From the NCBI GenBank assembly GCA_964344235.1, contig CAYFMJ010000001.1, positions 320,001 to 384,000 on the forward strand: a stretch of 64,000 bases of DNA. Direction: 5' to 3'. This document shows positions 18,777 through 61,809 of this stretch, piece after piece. Each line of letters starts with the position of its first letter. Within the stretch, counting starts at the first letter, position 1. This DNA is from an uncultured Methanosarcinales archaeon (GTDB lineage Archaea > Nanobdellota > Nanobdellia > Woesearchaeales > GW2011-AR9). A program made the position numbers and the translations under genes. Below the pieces are notes generated by a model that searched no databases, was not told the DNA's origin, and saw only the letters and a program-made list of their open reading frames with translations.

Positions 18777-19831
18777 TTTGCTGTTATTGTATGAATGAGT
18801 TCTGCTACTTTTGCCCCTAATACTTTTGAGTGGAACTGTTGATTGTAGGTTTTCCGAGCCTGCCGTTCAATTGTTTTGAGGAGGGGTTTATTTTCTTTTA
18901 GCAACTCTATTTTCTCTGCAAGTTCCTTCCCGTCGGAAAAATTACAGAAGATAATATCTTTCTTATCAGTAAGAAATTCTTTACAGGCTTTTGCTTCGCC
19001 AGTGATAACTGCTTTCGCCATTGCTAAACCCTCTATGACTTTGAACGCGACAACTCTCTGCATTTTAGCAACGGCACCGTCGAATTGACCTAATAAAACA
19101 TCTGCATTCTTTATTTTTTGAGGGATCATTTGGTAAGTACAGGGACCTTCAAACACTACGTTGTTTAAATCGTTCTGTTCTTTTAGCTGCTGAGCTGGTT
19201 TCAATAATGGCCCGGTTCCGACAAACCGGAATTCAATATCTTTCTTTTCTTTGAGAATTTTTGCAGCGTCTAGAATGTATTGTATACCATGCCCAGCAAT
19301 GAATGAACCATGGAATAGCACTCTGAATTTTTCTTTTTCTTTTTGACCTCTCTGGTCTCTCTCTTGCGGGAAAAAGAGGGTATCGTCAGCCCCCAAAGGA
19401 ACGCACGTAAACTTATTCGTAGGAATATTGAATGTTTCTGAAAAGTACTTTCCATGTTCTTCCGTATCAATGATTGTCCTACTTGAGAATTTGCAGGGGA
19501 TTTTGTCAGTGAACCATAACAATTTTGCTCGTAATGATTTCTTTGGCACACATTTTTTCGATTCTACGAGAGCTTCATAATTGGAGATAAAGCAGTCGTG
19601 AATGATGGGTTTAAAACAGAAAAGCCTTGCGAGAAACCAGACAATAATACCTTTTGTGATAAGAGCGTCGTAATCGTTTTTAAGAATGCGCCAACAGAGT
19701 TTAATATATTTTAATGAACTTGAAGGGGTGTAAAGGATGACGTTTACGCTGTTAGCTTTCAACCCTTCGTATAGGGATTGCCCACGACCGTAATTAGAAA
19801 AGTCATGGTCGGCAACTATTAGGACTTTCAT
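18773..19831 (-). CDS. Glycosyltransferase family 4
   Basis: FHGSFIAGHGIQYIL and FKVIEGLAMAKAVIT motifs. Confidence 0.85.
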   Translation of the reverse strand: MKVLIVADHDFSNYGRGQSLYEGLKANSVNVILYTPSSSLKYIKLCWRILKNDYDALITKGIIVWFLARLFCFKPIIHDCFISNYEALVESKKCVPKKSLRAKLLWFTDKIPCKFSSRTIIDTEEHGKYFSETFNIPTNKFTCVPLGADDTLFFPQERDQRGQKEKEKFRVLFHGSFIAGHGIQYILDAAKILKEKKDIEFRFVGTGPLLKPAQQLKEQNDLNNVVFEGPCTYQMIPQKIKNADVLLGQFDGAVAKMQRVVAFKVIEGLAMAKAVITGEAKACKEFLTDKKDIIFCNFSDGKELAEKIELLKENKPLLKTIERQARKTYNQQFHSKVLGAKVAELIHTITAK

Positions 19832-55175: not shown

Positions 55176-57302
55176 ATGGCTGATTTTGGTGATGGATATT
55201 ATATGCCGATGGACCGTGGACATGCACATGATCATGGACATCATGGTTTTCCAGGGGTTTCAGGGAAAGCAACAAGTGATGTAGGGATTTCTATCGGTGA
55301 TTTAGGAACAAGTATGGGTTTAGGTCCGGTGCCGAATGTGCAAACTGTTAAATCGCGTCTTCATCCCGGAGCGAAGAAGTTAGAGTTCGTATTTTTTGGT
55401 CGAGGAAAAGGTTCTGCTCAGGGACATACGCCAGGACAGTATGGGTTTAAGCAACGACAAGCATTAGTAGAGATTGGAAGATCAAATAAAGTTGATTTTA
55501 CAACGCACTCTGCTGTTGGCATTATGGGTTTAGCAGGGATGGATCAGCAAGGGAATTTCTCAAAAGCAAGTAAGCAGGATTCTCTATTGGAGTTAAAGCG
55601 AGCAGTTGAATTCGCTGCAGATGTGGGACAGGGAGGGCCCGTTGTTGTTCATACTGGGGAGTTTGACAGGCCAATTGTTGACGCTGAGTGGAACCAACAG
55701 GAAGGCGATCCGTACAAAGGGAAGTTTACTCGGTATGCTGATGAGGAAGGAAGAACGGAGTATAGGGTTGTTGATAGAAGAACTGGAAGACTGGTACAGT
55801 CAGCTCAGAAGAATAGAAAAGTTTCCCGGCCAGTATGGAATGTTGCTACAGAGGGAGAAGAGTATGTCGACTTTGATGGGGTGACAAAAAAGGGTGAGAA
55901 AGGAAAAAAAGTGTATTTAGATTATGAGGGAAACCGCGTACAGCCAGAGTTACGAGTTCCGAAGTTTAACAAAGATGATCAAAAATTCGAAGTGGTGCAG
56001 CTAGGGTGGGAAGATCTTGTTGAGGAAGCAAAAGAAATGACTACCCGTGCTAAAGAGGTGTGGAAAGATTGGAAAGCTGGTAGAATTAGTAATAAAGAGT
56101 TTGAAAAATCGTATTGGGCTCGATTTAGGGATGCGAAGAGTGTTAAAGATGTTAACGTCCGGGCTGAGGAAGCGTATATTATCTCAACATTAGAAACCAA
56201 TGCTGCTAGGGACAGGGGTTGGGCGTTGTATTATGGGGGGAATTTTGATGATTATATCAAAAAAATGAAGAAGTTTAAGAAAGCGCTGGCGTTTTATGAG
56301 CAATTGGAAGAAGCAACTGATGAAGAAGAGAAGTGGCAATTGAAGCGCGAAATTGGCGAGTTGCGTTTACCGAGTGGGTTGGTGCCGCCTGATTCTAAAT
56401 TTCCCTCTGAAATTTTGAGAGAGCAGATTAAAGAAGTTGATCGGCAAATGAAATATTCGCGTGAATCTTCAGCAGCACAATGGGCGCAATCAGAAGAAGC
56501 GGTGGAACAGATCAGGAATATTGAGAGTGCGGAGACGTATGCAATTAAAGAAGCGTATGATGCGTATGCACAATCAGCAATTAGTGCAATGAGACAGAGT
56601 GATGCGTTAGAGAAGAAAGGTAAGTTGAAGAAGCCGATTGCAGTTGCTCTTGAAAATTTATTCCCAGAAGCATATGGTTCACACCCTGATGAGTTAAAAA
56701 GTTTAGTGCTTGGGAGTCGGGAGAGGATGGTTGAGTTGCTGAAACAGCAAGGAATGGCTGAAGAAGCGGCTAAGAAGAAAGCCACAGCGCACATTACTGC
56801 AACATTTGATACCGGGCATCTTAACATGTGGCGGAAGTATTGGCGAGGGGATCCAAATAAAAGTATCAAAGAAAATGATAAAGCATTTGATAAATGGATG
56901 TTAGATAAAGTTGGAGAGCTAGCAAAGGATAAGATTATTGGCCACGTACATATTGATGATAATTATGGGTATCATGATGATCATCTCGCTCCGGGTGAAG
57001 GGAATACGCCGATTAAAGAGATGGTGAAAGTGTTAAAAAAGAACGGGTACAAAGGAGAATTAATTGTGGAGCCCGGTGCAGATTATTATACAGATACGGG
57101 AAATGGCTTTGCGTCACTTGCGAAGACATGGAAACATTTTGATCTACCAGTCTATGGACGAGGAGGGTTGTCTGGACAAGGAGCAACGTGGGGGAATGTG
57201 CAGTATGGTTTCTTTGGACATAATCAACCTGCATATTTCGTGTTTGGAGCATATAGCCCGTCGGAAGAATGGACGTTGTGGTCAGGAGTGCCGTTGGAGT
57301 AA
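55176..57302 (+). CDS. Xylose isomerase-like/AP endonuclease 2 TIM-barrel protein with large helical insertion
   Basis: VHTGE, ALENL, FDTGH, HVHIDDN, HLAPGEG and LIVE metal-ligand pattern, split by a ~330-aa insert. Confidence 0.8.
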   Translation: MADFGDGYYMPMDRGHAHDHGHHGFPGVSGKATSDVGISIGDLGTSMGLGPVPNVQTVKSRLHPGAKKLEFVFFGRGKGSAQGHTPGQYGFKQRQALVEIGRSNKVDFTTHSAVGIMGLAGMDQQGNFSKASKQDSLLELKRAVEFAADVGQGGPVVVHTGEFDRPIVDAEWNQQEGDPYKGKFTRYADEEGRTEYRVVDRRTGRLVQSAQKNRKVSRPVWNVATEGEEYVDFDGVTKKGEKGKKVYLDYEGNRVQPELRVPKFNKDDQKFEVVQLGWEDLVEEAKEMTTRAKEVWKDWKAGRISNKEFEKSYWARFRDAKSVKDVNVRAEEAYIISTLETNAARDRGWALYYGGNFDDYIKKMKKFKKALAFYEQLEEATDEEEKWQLKREIGELRLPSGLVPPDSKFPSEILREQIKEVDRQMKYSRESSAAQWAQSEEAVEQIRNIESAETYAIKEAYDAYAQSAISAMRQSDALEKKGKLKKPIAVALENLFPEAYGSHPDELKSLVLGSRERMVELLKQQGMAEEAAKKKATAHITATFDTGHLNMWRKYWRGDPNKSIKENDKAFDKWMLDKVGELAKDKIIGHVHIDDNYGYHDDHLAPGEGNTPIKEMVKVLKKNGYKGELIVEPGADYYTDTGNGFASLAKTWKHFDLPVYGRGGLSGQGATWGNVQYGFFGHNQPAYFVFGAYSPSEEWTLWSGVPLE

Positions 57303-57340: not shown

Positions 57341-57391
57341 GGTGTTATGCCCTGGGGACTTTACGTCCCCACGAGGAGCGTAGCGACGAAG
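57341..57391 (+). repeat. Junction element copy a
   Basis: GGTGTTATG, TGGGGAC-tttac-GTCCCCA hairpin, GAGCGTAGCGACGAAG. Confidence 0.75.
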
Positions 57392-57514
57392 AGTTTTTGA
57401 ACTACCGTGCATTGACACTGGCGCCGATTAACACTTACAGTTTTTAGTTTTAGTATTTCAAAGAAGGGGGAGTTCCGTTAGTTTTAGTTACACATTAAAG
57501 GGGGGACAATTTAG

Positions 57515-58276
57515 TTACTTGAAAGGTTTACTTTGTTTCCAGAACCATTCAAAATAATTTCTAAAAGAATCAGCAACTTGTTGACTTGTTATTTCAAAGG
57601 CAAAGGGCATTTCACCCTGAGGGATTGCAATGAGAACCACATCTTTGTAGATCATTACCCAAGAGGGAGATTCAATATTGAGGGGCATTCTTCTGGCTTC
57701 GCAATATTTGTAACTATTTCTGTTCTTTAAGTTTTCATTAGTTACATCAGGATGATAAAGCATTCTGCATTTGATTTTTTCTTTTGCCAAAATCTGATGG
57801 TGCTTTTTCCAATACGCATGATGAAAGCCCGGTTGTTGCGGAGGCAACCCGTACAAAACAACCTCATCTCCCTGTTTCAATTTTTGATAGCGGTTTTCGT
57901 AAGCAGTCATTAATCCTCTAAATCCCTCATACATATTAGCCTCACTTTTTTTGGCTAACTTTTGTTTAAGGATTAACTGGGGAATCATCTCTTGGATTTT
58001 CGCTTTATTTTGTTGAATCTCTTTTTCTCTAGTTTCAACATAATCCAAGAGTGTATTTGGCGGTGCTGCTTGGTAATACTTAGTTTTTTCTTTGGTCACA
58101 TAGGAAACAAGCCCTTTCTTGATTAGTTTTTCAAGAATCCTATAGATGATTGATCTATTTACTCCAGATTTTTCAAGAATAGGGCCGATTGTTGACGAAC
58201 CAAGCTCTAGCAAAGCCAAGTAAGTTCTTGTTTCACCATCAGTTAATCCTGCTTCTTGAAGGGCTGAAATGTCCAT
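57515..58276 (-). CDS. TrmB-family transcriptional regulator
   Basis: LQEAGLTDGETRTYLALLELG, winged HTH (SGVNRSIIYRILEKLIKKGLV), and a C-terminal effector domain ending FEWFW. Confidence 0.9.
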   Translation of the reverse strand: MDISALQEAGLTDGETRTYLALLELGSSTIGPILEKSGVNRSIIYRILEKLIKKGLVSYVTKEKTKYYQAAPPNTLLDYVETREKEIQQNKAKIQEMIPQLILKQKLAKKSEANMYEGFRGLMTAYENRYQKLKQGDEVVLYGLPPQQPGFHHAYWKKHHQILAKEKIKCRMLYHPDVTNENLKNRNSYKYCEARRMPLNIESPSWVMIYKDVVLIAIPQGEMPFAFEITSQQVADSFRNYFEWFWKQSKPFK

Positions 58277-58395
58277 GCTTTGTTTATGATTGGTTGTTTT
58301 ATTTAAATCTTTCTAATTAGCATACTAGTGGTGGTATGATAAAATTATTAAAGAAAGTAGTTGCTACTGTTAAATAAATAACTTAGGAATTAAAA

Positions 58396-58845
58396 ATGAC
58401 AGAAGAAAATAATGGGCTTGACGAGAGATTACTAACACAAGTACAGGCAATTAGCAGATTAGTAATTCCAGGTGTACAAACTGAATTTTGCAGGGGGGTT
58501 CCAAAGGAAGGCAGTACTAATGAATTTAGTCCAAGCACTAACATTCTTATTGAAAACTGTCTGGGTAGAACTGTTTTTGCATCATATATCCACACTCCGT
58601 ATGGTAAGAATCAATTTAGGATGTGGTTAGACAATCGTCCAAAAATGTTGGTACCCGCTAGAGATCATTACGATCGTGGAGGCAGTTCAAGAGAAGGCAG
58701 CCACTGGTTTTTTGAAGCTACTGGACTAACCGAACCAGTACAATCAATAAGAGATCTGTTGACGGATGGTTGGGAGAAAAAAGATGAATACAGCCATAGG
58801 GCAACTGCTATTCTTTACGCAAAAGGCGGGTTTTCGGATGAATAA
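58396..58845 (+). CDS. Hypothetical protein
   Basis: 149-aa ORF with AGGA SD and an upstream AT box. Confidence 0.6.
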   Translation: MTEENNGLDERLLTQVQAISRLVIPGVQTEFCRGVPKEGSTNEFSPSTNILIENCLGRTVFASYIHTPYGKNQFRMWLDNRPKMLVPARDHYDRGGSSREGSHWFFEATGLTEPVQSIRDLLTDGWEKKDEYSHRATAILYAKGGFSDE

Positions 58846-58872
58846 TCAAGATGAAACTAGGAGCTAAATAAA

Positions 58873-59415
58873 ATGGCAAAAATTGAAAGCATTGAAAGAA
58901 TACTTGTTGTTGAGGATACTGAACAACATATTCAGGCAGCTAGAGAACAACTTGGTGAGTATGAACTTACAATGGTGGGAGATTTCGAAAGATTCCTCGA
59001 CGCAGTGAAAGGTACTTGTTTTGACGCGCCGAATAATAGAATGAAGCGTAATTATAACTTTCCTGAAGATCCAAAATTTGATGCTGTACTTAGCGATATG
59101 AATTTTCCTATGAATGTAAAAGACTTGTACAGTGGTTACAATTCCCCTGGTGTTTTAGGATATGCAGTAGGGATGATCTGTTCACAAGCATCAATTCCAT
59201 TAGTAGGAATTGTGTCTGCAACAAACCACCATGAAGGATCTGTTGCAGGAAGTCTAATGTACTTGAAAGCAACAAGACACGCTGATAGAATTTTTCAAGT
59301 AGGAGATACACGAATAATGTATTTTGATGATGACTCTTTTGGCACAAGGGATCAACCTAAGAGATGGGATAAAGCATTAGAATGTTTAAATGCAGGAACC
59401 AGAAATATTGATTAG
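58873..59415 (+). CDS. Stand-alone response-regulator receiver-like protein
   Basis: ILVVED acidic pocket, DAVLSDMNFP phosphoacceptor region, VSAT; GGAG SD. Confidence 0.65.
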   Translation: MAKIESIERILVVEDTEQHIQAAREQLGEYELTMVGDFERFLDAVKGTCFDAPNNRMKRNYNFPEDPKFDAVLSDMNFPMNVKDLYSGYNSPGVLGYAVGMICSQASIPLVGIVSATNHHEGSVAGSLMYLKATRHADRIFQVGDTRIMYFDDDSFGTRDQPKRWDKALECLNAGTRNID

Positions 59416-59561
59416 AAATTGTCCCCCCTCTTTTTTTTGTTTTTAGGAACTCCCCCGTTAAAGTTTTAGTGTTAATCATAGTTTTAGTTCTTAGAAAGGC
59501 GCCAGTTAAGATTGTTTAATTTAGCGTTAGCGTAGTATCCAAAATAGGTAGTTCAAAAATT

Positions 59562-59618
59562 GGGCATATACGATGTTATGTGCCCCCGACTTCACGTCGG
59601 GGTGCGTAACGACCGAAG
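59562..59618 (+). repeat. Junction element copy b
   Basis: GGGCATATACGATGTTATGTGCCC hairpin, CCCCGAC-ttcac-GTCGGGG hairpin, GTGCGTAACGACCGAAG. Confidence 0.75.
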
Positions 59619-59693
59619 GGAGTGGAGCAAGTATTTGAGTTGCGTCATAGAAAGGGGCTTGGCATAGTTTTGGTTTTTAGAGGGGCTTAAGTT

Positions 59694-60029
59694 TTACTTT
59701 TTGAAAATGTTTACTAAAGAATCCTGAATCTCTTTGATTTTGTTTTCTTTCAAAGTGCCAATTTTTGAAGAAATGATTGAAACATCGGCAGTGAAAAGCT
59801 TGTTTGGTCTTACAAGACTTGATACTGTCAATTTTCCAGTTTGAAAATTTTCTGTTTCAAGAGGAACTGCATATTCATCGCTACGAGCAGAAGCAGTTGT
59901 TATCTGTGCAAGAATTAAATCGTCACCTGTGAGATTTGCCACCACTACTGCTGGTCGTTTCCGTGATGAACTTAGATCAGAGAAAGGAAAAAGAAGAACA
60001 ACGACATCTCCTCTTACAAGTGTTTCCAT
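59694..60029 (-). CDS. mazF: PemK/MazF-family toxin
   Basis: RGDVVVLLFPFSDLSSSRKRPAVVV, LAQITT and SLVRPNKLFT motifs. Confidence 0.9.
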   Translation of the reverse strand: METLVRGDVVVLLFPFSDLSSSRKRPAVVVANLTGDDLILAQITTASARSDEYAVPLETENFQTGKLTVSSLVRPNKLFTADVSIISSKIGTLKENKIKEIQDSLVNIFKK

Positions 60030-60271
60030 GCTTCATCCTCCTCTTTAGTAAGCCAATCTTTTGCTAAAGATTTTTCACTGGCTAAAGCTGGAAACATTTT
60101 TTCATTGAATTGTTTTAACGGTCGTAGTTCTACTTTATTATCAAAGGCTAAAATTGCTACTTTTGTTCCCTCTTTGAATCCCTCAAGTTTTCTAATGTTT
60201 TTTGGGATAGCAATTTGACCTTTCTCTGTTACAGTTGCAGTTCTCATTTCGATTAATGGCATTTTGATCAC
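60014..60271 (-). CDS. mazE: AbrB/MazE/SpoVT-family antitoxin
   Basis: TVTEKGQIAIPKNIR swapped-hairpin; C-terminal ASEKSLAKDWLTKEEDEAWKHL; overlaps the toxin start. Confidence 0.88.
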   Translation of the reverse strand: MIKMPLIEMRTATVTEKGQIAIPKNIRKLEGFKEGTKVAILAFDNKVELRPLKQFNEKMFPALASEKSLAKDWLTKEEDEAWKHL

Positions 60272-60424
60272 CTACTTAGTAATTCTTACAAGTAGGATAA
60301 GTAAGAAATATATAAATTTTTCTGTATTTATGTTGTTACTAAATGATGAATAAATCAAGGAAAGATTTATAAATGATTAGCCGTTTCTAAGACTATAATC
60401 ATTAAAATCAAGAGGTCAATAAAA

Positions 60425-60727
60425 ATGTCAGAAAATAAATTAGTATTTGCTCGTGCATATTGGATGAATAGTCCATTTGAAGAAGGACAAGCAGGATTCT
60501 TTGTAGGAGATCCAAGTAATCCATCTAAAGGATCATATGAAGGTAACAATAATTTAAGGTTTGCTGTTGCTAAAGTTGCTGAAAGAAGTTCTGAATTATC
60601 TACAACTGTTGATACAGAATTTGAAGGTCTAGCAAGAGATGGCAAAATGACTTTATTGTTGCAACCAATTGAGCAAGATACTGCTAAATACAAAAGTGTT
60701 GATGAATTAGCACGCATGTATCTTTAA
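60425..60727 (+). CDS. Hypothetical protein
   Basis: 100-aa AT-rich ORF with GAGGT SD. Confidence 0.6.
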   Translation: MSENKLVFARAYWMNSPFEEGQAGFFVGDPSNPSKGSYEGNNNLRFAVAKVAERSSELSTTVDTEFEGLARDGKMTLLLQPIEQDTAKYKSVDELARMYL

Positions 60728-60878
60728 AATTATTTTTTCTTTTTAACTTAAGCCCCTCTTTTTCTTTTTACATTTTAGTTTTTAACATAGAGCCAAGCCC
60801 CATCAATAATAGAATTTCTGCATTCAGTTTATAGTCAGTAAACAGAAGCAGAGTAAACATCAAGCAACTCAAATATTG

Positions 60879-60937
60879 CACATAACGATGTTATGTTGTG
60901 GGAGGTTCATCCTCCCAGCCGAGCGTTAGCGAGGAAG
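60879..60937 (+). repeat. Junction element copy c
   Basis: ACATAAC-gat-GTTATGT hairpin, TGGGAGG-ttcat-CCTCCCA hairpin, GAGCGTTAGCGAGGAAG. Confidence 0.75.
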
Positions 60938-61619
60938 TTTAGAAATCAGGAACAAGCTTTACCCCCGCCATTGTAGAATTTCACTGCCATACTCATCTTT
61001 TACTATTTTTTAGTAATATTTTTAAAGAAAGAGGTTTCTCATACTATTTATGCAACAATTACTAACATACAGAGAATTTCCATTTGATCATTCATTATTT
61101 TTGGATAAAGGTATTAATGCAGGAGATTTGCATGTTACTCTTTATGATGAAATGGGTTGTACTCAAGATGGTGACCAAAAGTTAAGTGAAGTAAATAGAA
61201 GAGTTCATAATGCTGCTGTAAGAAGTTTAGTTGGTAAATTTGCTGGTGATTTAGGACAAAGAGTTTCTTTTGGTGTTTCTAGATTTTTAAAAAAAAGTAA
61301 ACGTGCTAGTCCTGATTATTCATTAAGTGAAGTTGCAGATGTTCTTGTTGGAGCAGGAGCGTATGAATCAAGAGAAGCAGCATTAGAACATTTACCTGAA
61401 TTTTTAGGAACCTCTTTAAGGACTGATGGAAAACGAAAATATGCTAACTCAATGTGGACGGGAGTACAAACTAGTTTAGATATTGAAGTAAAAGATGAGT
61501 GGCATTGGTTTGGAAGAATAGATTCTGATAGTGGTGAACAGAAGGTATATTTACATAAGCAAAAATAATTTTATGGTGGGGGTTATTCAAGTTCTACGTC
61601 CTAATTCCTGATCTCTAAA
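60938..61619. mobile_element. Module 3: single ORF enclosed by two nested inverted-repeat blocks
   Basis: 60938-952/61605-619 (14 of 15 match) and 60961-971/61573-583 (10 of 11 match). Confidence 0.45.
61050..61568 (+). CDS. Hypothetical protein
   Basis: 172-aa AT-rich ORF; no recognisable family. Confidence 0.65.
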   Translation: MQQLLTYREFPFDHSLFLDKGINAGDLHVTLYDEMGCTQDGDQKLSEVNRRVHNAAVRSLVGKFAGDLGQRVSFGVSRFLKKSKRASPDYSLSEVADVLVGAGAYESREAALEHLPEFLGTSLRTDGKRKYANSMWTGVQTSLDIEVKDEWHWFGRIDSDSGEQKVYLHKQK

Positions 61620-61809
61620 TTCAACATACGGACTACTTAAGTGCACTTTGGGCTTAAGTAGTGAAATTCTTTGAATTCAAAGCCTCTACTCAATCCCATA
61701 ACGCAAAAAACTGTTACTACTTTGCATGGAAATGTCTCACTACCCACTCGACAACCACGGGTAGAGTATATAAACGAGTTTCTTCACTAAGAATGTCGAG
61801 GTGATAGAA

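Follow-up and report, generated by a model that had tools for sequence, protein, structure and literature searches.

We analyzed a 64,000-nucleotide stretch of DNA (the window; positions 320,001 to 384,000 of contig CAYFMJ010000001.1, assembly GCA_964344235.1) from an uncultured archaeon placed in the Woesearchaeales, in which an earlier note had pointed out five inverted sequence blocks in mirror order around a trmB gene and two further genes (Module 1). Our reading, to which we give a probability of roughly 0.6, is that Module 1 is a mobile gene cassette within a co-oriented array, moved by site-specific recombination with a folded stem private to the cassette as its site. The window is part of the largest contig (C1) of a genome of 37 contigs, 1.19 Mb and ~39% GC, whose XerA-type and TrmB-type genes are in keeping with an archaeal origin. 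Module 1 (57344-59571 of the window; hereafter cassette 1) is the first of three co-oriented cassettes, and the row runs from a core gene of 708 amino acids (aa) through cassette 1, GAT, cassette 2, GAT and cassette 3 to a terminal region.

Each cassette opens with GTTATGNNN, a GC hairpin, a CGTAGCG-type tail and the left blocks, and after the cargo the right blocks lead to a closing NNNCATAAC, with GAT as the joiner between successive cassettes. A GC-rich junction element lies in direct orientation outside both arms of cassette 1 and is made up of a palindromic core (...CATAAC-GAT-GTTATG...), a 7-bp GC hairpin with the loop TTYAY (hp2) and a CGTAGCG-rich tail; a third copy is found in the window at 60875-60939. 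On the plus strand, cassette 1 begins with the R'-like start core GTTATGCCC (57344-57352), exactly where homology to the metagenome contig L043 starts, followed by hp2 (57353-57371, 7-bp stem, loop TTTAC), which is supported by covariation among junction element copies, the tail CGAGGAGCGTAGCGACGAAGAG (57372-57393) and the left arm (57394-57512). The right arm, also read on the plus strand, occupies 59416-59559 and leads to the R''-like end core GGGCATA[T]AC, with a 1-nt insertion, and the junction triplet GAT (59562-59574).

The five inverted blocks are all present in mirror order, each an exact reverse complement of its partner: block 1 (TTTTTGAACTACC; 57394-57406 with 59547-59559), block 2 (ACTGGCGCC; 57417-57425 with 59498-59506), block 3 (GATTAACACT; 57426-57435 with 59468-59477), block 4 (GGGGGAGTTCC; 57466-57476 with 59446-59456) and block 5 ((A)GGGGGGACAATTT; 57499-57512 with 59416-59429). 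A sixth pair, outside the range noted earlier, is formed by the start core and the end core (57344-57352 with 59562-59571). When the left arm is matched against the reverse-complemented right arm, these five blocks form the best colinear chain (exact blocks, minimum length 9 nt), which totals 57 nt; the maximum was 13 nt in 5000 shuffles of the left arm and 20 nt in 6926 real 119-nt windows of contig C1. The spacers differ in length and sequence, as had been reported, and a global aligner cannot bridge them, with MAFFT aligning the two outermost blocks only. Aligning the arms gave neither a continuous match nor evenly scattered mismatches, which agrees with the earlier view that they are not one decayed terminal repeat. 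Moreover, each block pair is unique or nearly unique to the locus in its own genome, so a generic terminator or repeat motif can be rejected.

Private mirrored arms recur throughout the family. Within the same genome they are found in cassette 2, in both cassettes on contig C3 and in those on C9 and C26, each with its own mirror blocks and unrelated spacers, and a related family on contig C17 also carries private mirror blocks. With a covariance model built from 16 copies (R1), we detected the junction element in 77 of 114 family genomes and in 44 of 58 genera; the copies frequently form arrays of 5 to 12 or more. We cut 51 cassettes from 10 arrays, each from GTTATG to the next CATAAC, and restricted the arm-chain statistics to the 47 cassettes of at least 500 nt. 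The mirrored exact-block chain between a cassette's own arms has a median of 43 nt and reaches at least 25 nt in 45 of the 47 cassettes, compared with a median of 16 nt for non-self arm pairs. These cassettes contain 196 arm blocks with a median length of 11 nt, and spacers are equal in length in both arms in 4 of 149 cases. At the cassette ends, GTTATG or GTTAAG stands at the start of all 51 cassettes, and in 34 of them the 9-nt termini are complementary throughout; the terminal NNN triplet is complementary within the cassette in 38 of 51, across junctions in 3 of 38 and in 10.6% of all non-self combinations. A single polarity with respect to the junction element holds for all 47 cassettes examined, and the left-arm blocks are G-rich in 30 of the 47, a mild strand asymmetry. 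A pattern scan of metagenomes returned chiefly chance matches, together with ~10 true relatives.

Homologous cassettes show compensatory change in their arms. Both arms and both junction elements of L043 are 89-90% identical to those of cassette 1, spacers included, and G010c is a more distant homologue of the cassette 1 frame. Block 2 changes in both arms in step, from ACTGGCGCC:GGCGCCAGT in cassette 1 and L043 to ACTAGCGCC:GGCGCTAGT in G010c, and block 1, which is TTTTTGAACTACC in cassette 1, has become (G)TTTTGAACTACC in L043 and TATTTTCCAACC in G010c, each with the exact complement in the partner arm; in a separate C9 cassette block 1 is TTTTTGAATTGCC, again with its exact complement. Similarly, the terminal triplet changes from CCC:GGG to TCC:GGA between homologous frames, and G-runs of 6, 5 and 4 in the innermost block are matched by C-runs of 6, 5 and 4 across frames. 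Collectively, these changes demonstrate selection for strict arm complementarity, possibly aided by copy-correction, and they support one explanation offered in the earlier note, that selection acts on the pairing segments only: complementarity is kept across homologous cassettes, and the spacers vary in sequence and length. All seven pairs of hp2 covary and are 100% Watson-Crick, with no G.U in 112 cells (16 copies), and among ~190 arm blocks we found no wobble pair and three blocks interrupted by a single mismatch. Because G.U is absent from hp2 and wobble from the arm blocks, the pairing looks DNA-like rather than RNA-like.

Joined arms, whose folding the earlier note had proposed for Module 1, fold with all blocks paired, and one long interrupted stem was obtained for four of four cassettes tested with the arms joined as in an excised circle. 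Block 1 closes this stem, the core hairpin and hp2 form its tip, and for both strands the fold energies lie far below the values for shuffled sequences. When the whole 1312-nt cassette 2 is folded as single-stranded DNA, the 9-nt termini and all three of its blocks pair across 1.1 kb of cargo, in the minimum-energy as well as the centroid structure. A longer GTTA...TAAC stem enclosing hp2 was also considered, but other copies do not conserve it.

The boundaries of the mobile unit are visible in duplicated and exchanged cassettes. An array in genome G010 contains the same 896-nt cassette twice (93% identical), with identity running from the G of GTTATG to CATAAC between unrelated flanks, and a C9 cassette of the genome studied here matches a cassette of another genus (G018) at 89% identity, starting at the first base of the C9 cassette. 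From the exact ends of these duplicate and cross-genus copies it follows that the unit copied and exchanged is exactly GTTATG...CATAAC. Additionally, cassette 2 has a homologue in G004 (83-85% identity), and the homology between cassette 1 and L043 stops in the centre of the core. We take the cassette architecture, its exact boundaries, and the mobility and duplication of cassettes to be established.

The arrays are linked to a gene for a XerA-type tyrosine recombinase, and four of them end just upstream of such a gene in the same orientation. On contig C3 the row stops ~100 nt short of a downstream, co-oriented gene for a tyrosine recombinase of 271 aa, which best matches the archaeal XerA model NF040815 (219.4 bits vs. 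a cut-off of 220) and scores 195 bits, in two stretches, on the integron-integrase model TIGR02249 (cut-off 265). In G010, G046, and G007, orthologues with 54-60% aa identity follow arrays downstream in the same orientation, and a 40% relative follows a C17-type module in L077. In G075 and G108 the conserved upstream site precedes an orthologue (55% identity) with no array, and G075 also has a single cassette end. The terminal 62 nt of the C1 array (61659-61721, plus strand) are identical to the sequence upstream of the C3 gene, include CATAAC-N10-GTTACTAC and are followed by a diverged promoter-like stretch; outside its own genome this sequence is not conserved at the DNA level, except for CATAAC-N10-GTTACTAC upstream of xer in G075 and G108. 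Contig C15 carries another full-length XerA-type gene (240 bits on NF040815; its product shares 52% identity with the C3 protein), and upstream of it, at the contig edge, lies a cassette-end-like sequence. A box reading CACT(N)GACAAC...GGNTAGA..TATAAA is present upstream of both XerA-type genes and at the xer-less end of the C1 array (window 61722-61790; C3 ~19705-19790; L168 140-195, representing C15).

We propose that the site of crossover would be the small palindromic core ...NNNCATAAC-GAT-GTTATGNNN... that each junction contains. Together with the 9-nt termini, the five blocks would be the two halves of an interrupted stem private to cassette 1, pairing when the DNA is single-stranded or extruded, and the whole cassette would then form a stem-loop with the cargo in its loop; equivalently, in the excised circle, the joint would be spanned by a Y-shaped hairpin of ~330 nt. 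The XerA-type tyrosine recombinase from the downstream end of an array probably acts on the folded site. Folded DNA as the substrate, the folding strand and the acting enzyme are inferred.

Several observations weigh against this proposal. Arms and cargo are mosaic: L043 joins the arms of cassette 1 to unrelated cargo (a TrmB-like protein only 37% identical, a Fic/DOC gene, and a 128-aa gene), the trmB of cassette 1 is 91% identical at the aa level to a copy in a G018 cassette with different arms, and such mosaicism needs further recombination outside the model. The end triplets are imperfect in 13 of 51 cassettes, and the fold energies single out neither strand. No recombinase gene follows the terminal region of the C1 array, which is therefore an orphan array without an enzyme of its own. 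The genome encodes 11 tyrosine recombinases, of which two are full-length XerA-type (C3 and C15), and since both of these follow a cassette-end-like sequence, gene position does not single out the acting enzyme. Moreover, conversion or template switching, and not selection on a substrate, could account for the persistence of perfect blocks, and the circles, empty sites and strand exchange that the proposal would entail are predictions from it.

Related to this mosaicism, M1-type arms in G010 carry an LD-carboxypeptidase-like gene, as read from the translation of the open reading frame (ORF), and the innermost blocks TAGAAATTGTCCCC and GGAACTCCCC are common to cassettes with different outer blocks, even of a different junction family. 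We considered a strict link between TrmB and the arms and found it ruled out by the same trmB in different arms (G018) and by other cargo in M1-type arms (G010).

Ordinary Xer recombination on double-stranded DNA between directly repeated dif-like cores, as in integrative mobile elements exploiting Xer (IMEX) or dif modules, would make the arm complementarity a by-product of intramolecular conversion or template switching. In favor of this account, the core CATAA-N5-TTATG is similar to dif arms, a XerA-type enzyme is linked to the arrays, and the blocks are perfect with almost no single mismatches, as expected from repeated copy-correction. We nevertheless consider this account unlikely: a double-stranded site gives no reason why arbitrary NNN triplets and 3-7 private blocks should stay complementary within each cassette across genera with spacers free in sequence and length, and the junction site ATTNNNCATAA-CGATG-TTATGNNN has a spacer of 5 nt between its inverted arms in the 11-bp-arm register, varying from 4 to 6 among copies, whereas dif has 11-bp inverted arms around a 6-bp spacer (PMC2958812). 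Pairing of the arms in RNA, either as a processing or insulating stem in a read-through transcript, as around ribosomal RNA genes, or as paired halves of terminators, appears improbable. T runs after C-rich right-arm blocks, the G-rich left-arm blocks of 30 of the 47 cassettes and TTCG-loop hairpins in some C17 spacers would suit such a stem, but G.U pairs are absent from the 112 hp2 cells and from the block interruptions, cargo genes lie on both strands with their own promoters, and both the exact core-bounded duplication and exchange of cassettes and the recombinase linkage are left unexplained. The earlier suggestion that the blocks are shared motifs of 3' untranslated regions fails because in related cassettes (C17, L043, and G010c) the same inner blocks abut gene starts or promoters, not gene ends.

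An invertible, shufflon-like segment is a very improbable identity for Module 1, as is a transposon whose terminal inverted repeats have decayed. Inverted repeats do surround a segment of 1.9 kb, but the arms show no continuous alignment with scattered mismatches, and multi-site inversion as raised in the earlier note is not supported, given the cassette-specific blocks and the single polarity of 47 of 47 cassettes relative to the junction element. Since the blocks differ between cassettes, no single enzyme could read them. Of the features of a transposon, cassette 1 shows no transposase in the cargo and no target-site duplication at the ends, and its blocks are private where a transposon would have a shared terminal sequence, and no invertase was found in or adjoining Module 1 or in the other cassettes.

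Canonical attC arrays have been described in Archaea, including Nanoarchaeota, mostly without an integrase (Ghaly et al., 2022; PMC9668308). The cassette system described here resembles the bacterial integron, sedentary chromosomal integrons included, but has different sites and a different type of enzyme. The likeness extends to co-oriented arrays with small cargo, mostly promoter-poor or ORFan and toxin-antitoxin, to a GTT-type core at every boundary (GTTATGY here, GTTRRRY in integrons), to the pairing, within each cassette, of the 5' end with the 3' inverse core, to a site structure kept through complementarity and not sequence, to a tyrosine recombinase gene at one array end, and to orphan arrays without a recombinase, comparable to clusters of attC sites lacking integron-integrases (CALINs). 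These arrays thus have the features of integron-type arrays in their co-oriented cassettes, GTTRRRY-type boundary cores and own-end complementarity. The geometry, however, is inside-out: the cargo lies inside the hairpin, at the place of the variable terminal structure of attC, whereas the integron ORF lies between local, imperfect attC hairpins (R''-L''...L'-R') of 57-141 nt, one at the 3' end of each cassette. Successive sites abut with only GAT between them, placing inverse core and core 3 nt apart at each junction, the paired segments flank cargo 0.3-3.8 kb apart, and the stem consists of 3-7 perfect blocks over 120-220 nt per arm. Canonical attC sites were rejected, as neither strand shows an attC-size R''...R' hairpin at the junctions. 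The enzyme is XerA-type (271 aa), downstream and co-oriented, whereas the integron integrase is upstream and divergent; membership of the Xer family is indicated by the two full-length XerA-type genes and by orthologues beside arrays in four genomes, and the C3 enzyme falls under the TIGR02249 cut-off for integrases of the IntI type, which carry a characteristic insertion in the catalytic domain, and scores better on the XerA model.

IMEX such as the CTX phage and the pdif modules of Acinetobacter share with these cassettes a Xer-family enzyme, a dif-like palindromic core (CATAA...TTATG), and small core-bounded modules. In the CTX phage XerCD acts on the folded single-stranded attP, and Xer enzymes can thus use a folded single strand. 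The cores described here keep a direct orientation from junction to junction along a long array, whereas the two sites bounding a pdif module are inverted relative to each other; in addition, the core spacing appears to depart from the canonical 11-6-11, and the private complementary arms of each module have no counterpart in those systems.

More tentatively, and with slightly more doubt than belief, we suggest that the folded-cassette reading may extend to a second gene-capture system of DPANN archaea, independent of integrons, in which a Xer enzyme without the IntI insertion would act on the folded strand of split-hairpin cassettes at a 21-nt core, with the blocks kept by selection on stem stability. 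Full-text literature searches found no published description of cargo-in-hairpin cassettes with a Xer-type enzyme. If the proposal is true, gene capture through folded DNA would not be peculiar to integrons and a specialised integrase, and in ultrasmall archaea an integron-like job would fall to a plain Xer-type enzyme whose sites have an inside-out geometry. It would also offer a concrete route for fast gene turnover in DPANN genomes, add a new site class missed by current integron finders, and provide a natural test bed for tyrosine recombinases that read DNA structure rather than sequence. The element is common, occurring in two thirds of the sampled genomes of the family, and its covariation yields a testable definition of the site by core, hp2, and private stems.

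The cargo of cassette 1 comprises three genes. The trmB gene (57515-58276, minus strand) encodes a TrmB-family helix-turn-helix regulator of 253 aa, an identification from the earlier note that Pfam confirms (PF01978, E 4e-17). It is followed on the plus strand by a gene for a 149-aa protein with no family match (58396-58845) and one for a 180-aa protein (58873-59415) whose TAG stop adjoins the innermost block; the latter had been called a receiver, for which a language model gives a weak lead and Pfam and NCBIfam give no match. TrmB-like regulators (~250 aa) are strongly expanded in this 1.19-Mb genome, with 14 tblastn matches, 11 of them near full length, and they recur as cassette cargo, one of them adjoining the C3 recombinase. 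The TrmB-like genes are located on C1, C2, C3, C5, C9, C17, C19, and C25 of this genome and at L043, L166, L162, L039, and L020.

The innermost block of the right arm of cassette 1 (window 59413-59429) is really (GAT)TAGAAATTGTCCCC, with homologues in L020, L039, L043, L137, G021, and G010c. The TAG within it is the stop codon of the gene that ends there and is kept in G010c, where no gene ends. A further motif, AGTTTTAGT, has four copies in the window, all on the plus strand, direct and not inverted, in the arm spacers (57394-57512 and 59416-59559); it was considered as a CRISPR-like spacer motif, with only four copies that are confined to the two arms. A reading of block 4 (GGGGGAGTTCC) as boxes like the origin recognition boxes (ORB) of replication origins was rejected, since the motif order appears not to fit.

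Cassette 2 (59575-60886, plus strand) opens with GTTATGTGC followed by hp2 and the tail, and closes with GCACATAAC. Its own three mirror blocks, TATTTGAGTTGC, GGGGCTTGGC, and GGGGCTTAAGTT, occupy 59632-643, 59654-663, and 59682-693 on the left and 60745-756, 60792-801, and 60864-875 on the right (plus strand), and its cargo includes MazF (59694-60029) and MazE/AbrB (60014-60271), both on the minus strand, in addition to a 100-aa ORF. Cassette 3 (60890-61629, plus strand) opens with GTTATGTTG, followed by hp2, the tail, the block TTTAGAAATCAGG and a 172-aa cargo; its end is decayed (CCTGAT[C]TCTAAA TT CAACATAC), as is its block set.

Upstream of the array, the 708-aa gene (window 55176-57302) encodes an AP_endonuc_2/TIM-barrel domain; of 41 relatives, 40 have it as a conserved core gene in single copy. 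Comparison of its neighborhoods in the 41 relatives did not reveal a clean empty site for the array, because its downstream neighbors vary and the usual membrane-protein neighbor lies on contig C8 here. Searches of the window with Rfam (gathering thresholds) and ARAGORN gave no matches.

Several units depart from the common cassette form. L007 1209-1520 (G010:C2) is a 308-nt GC-rich, strongly self-complementary unit without an ORF, and L166 (G099:C11) contains two 78-nt "empty" units bounded by GTTATGTTT...AAACATAAC; such ORF-less units may be non-coding cargo or minimal sites. The C17 cassette family (L011 5480-5867 and 8391-8525) has the same two innermost blocks as cassette 1 with different outer blocks, and its different junction element is not matched by model R1; the left-arm spacers contain several short TTCG-loop hairpins, and the contig ends inside the right arm. 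At L020 4587-4793, and also in L085, an inner arm of right type and one of left type are joined head to head, without an intervening junction element, forming a local 200-nt palindrome between two genes that apparently arose by deletion of the outer arms.

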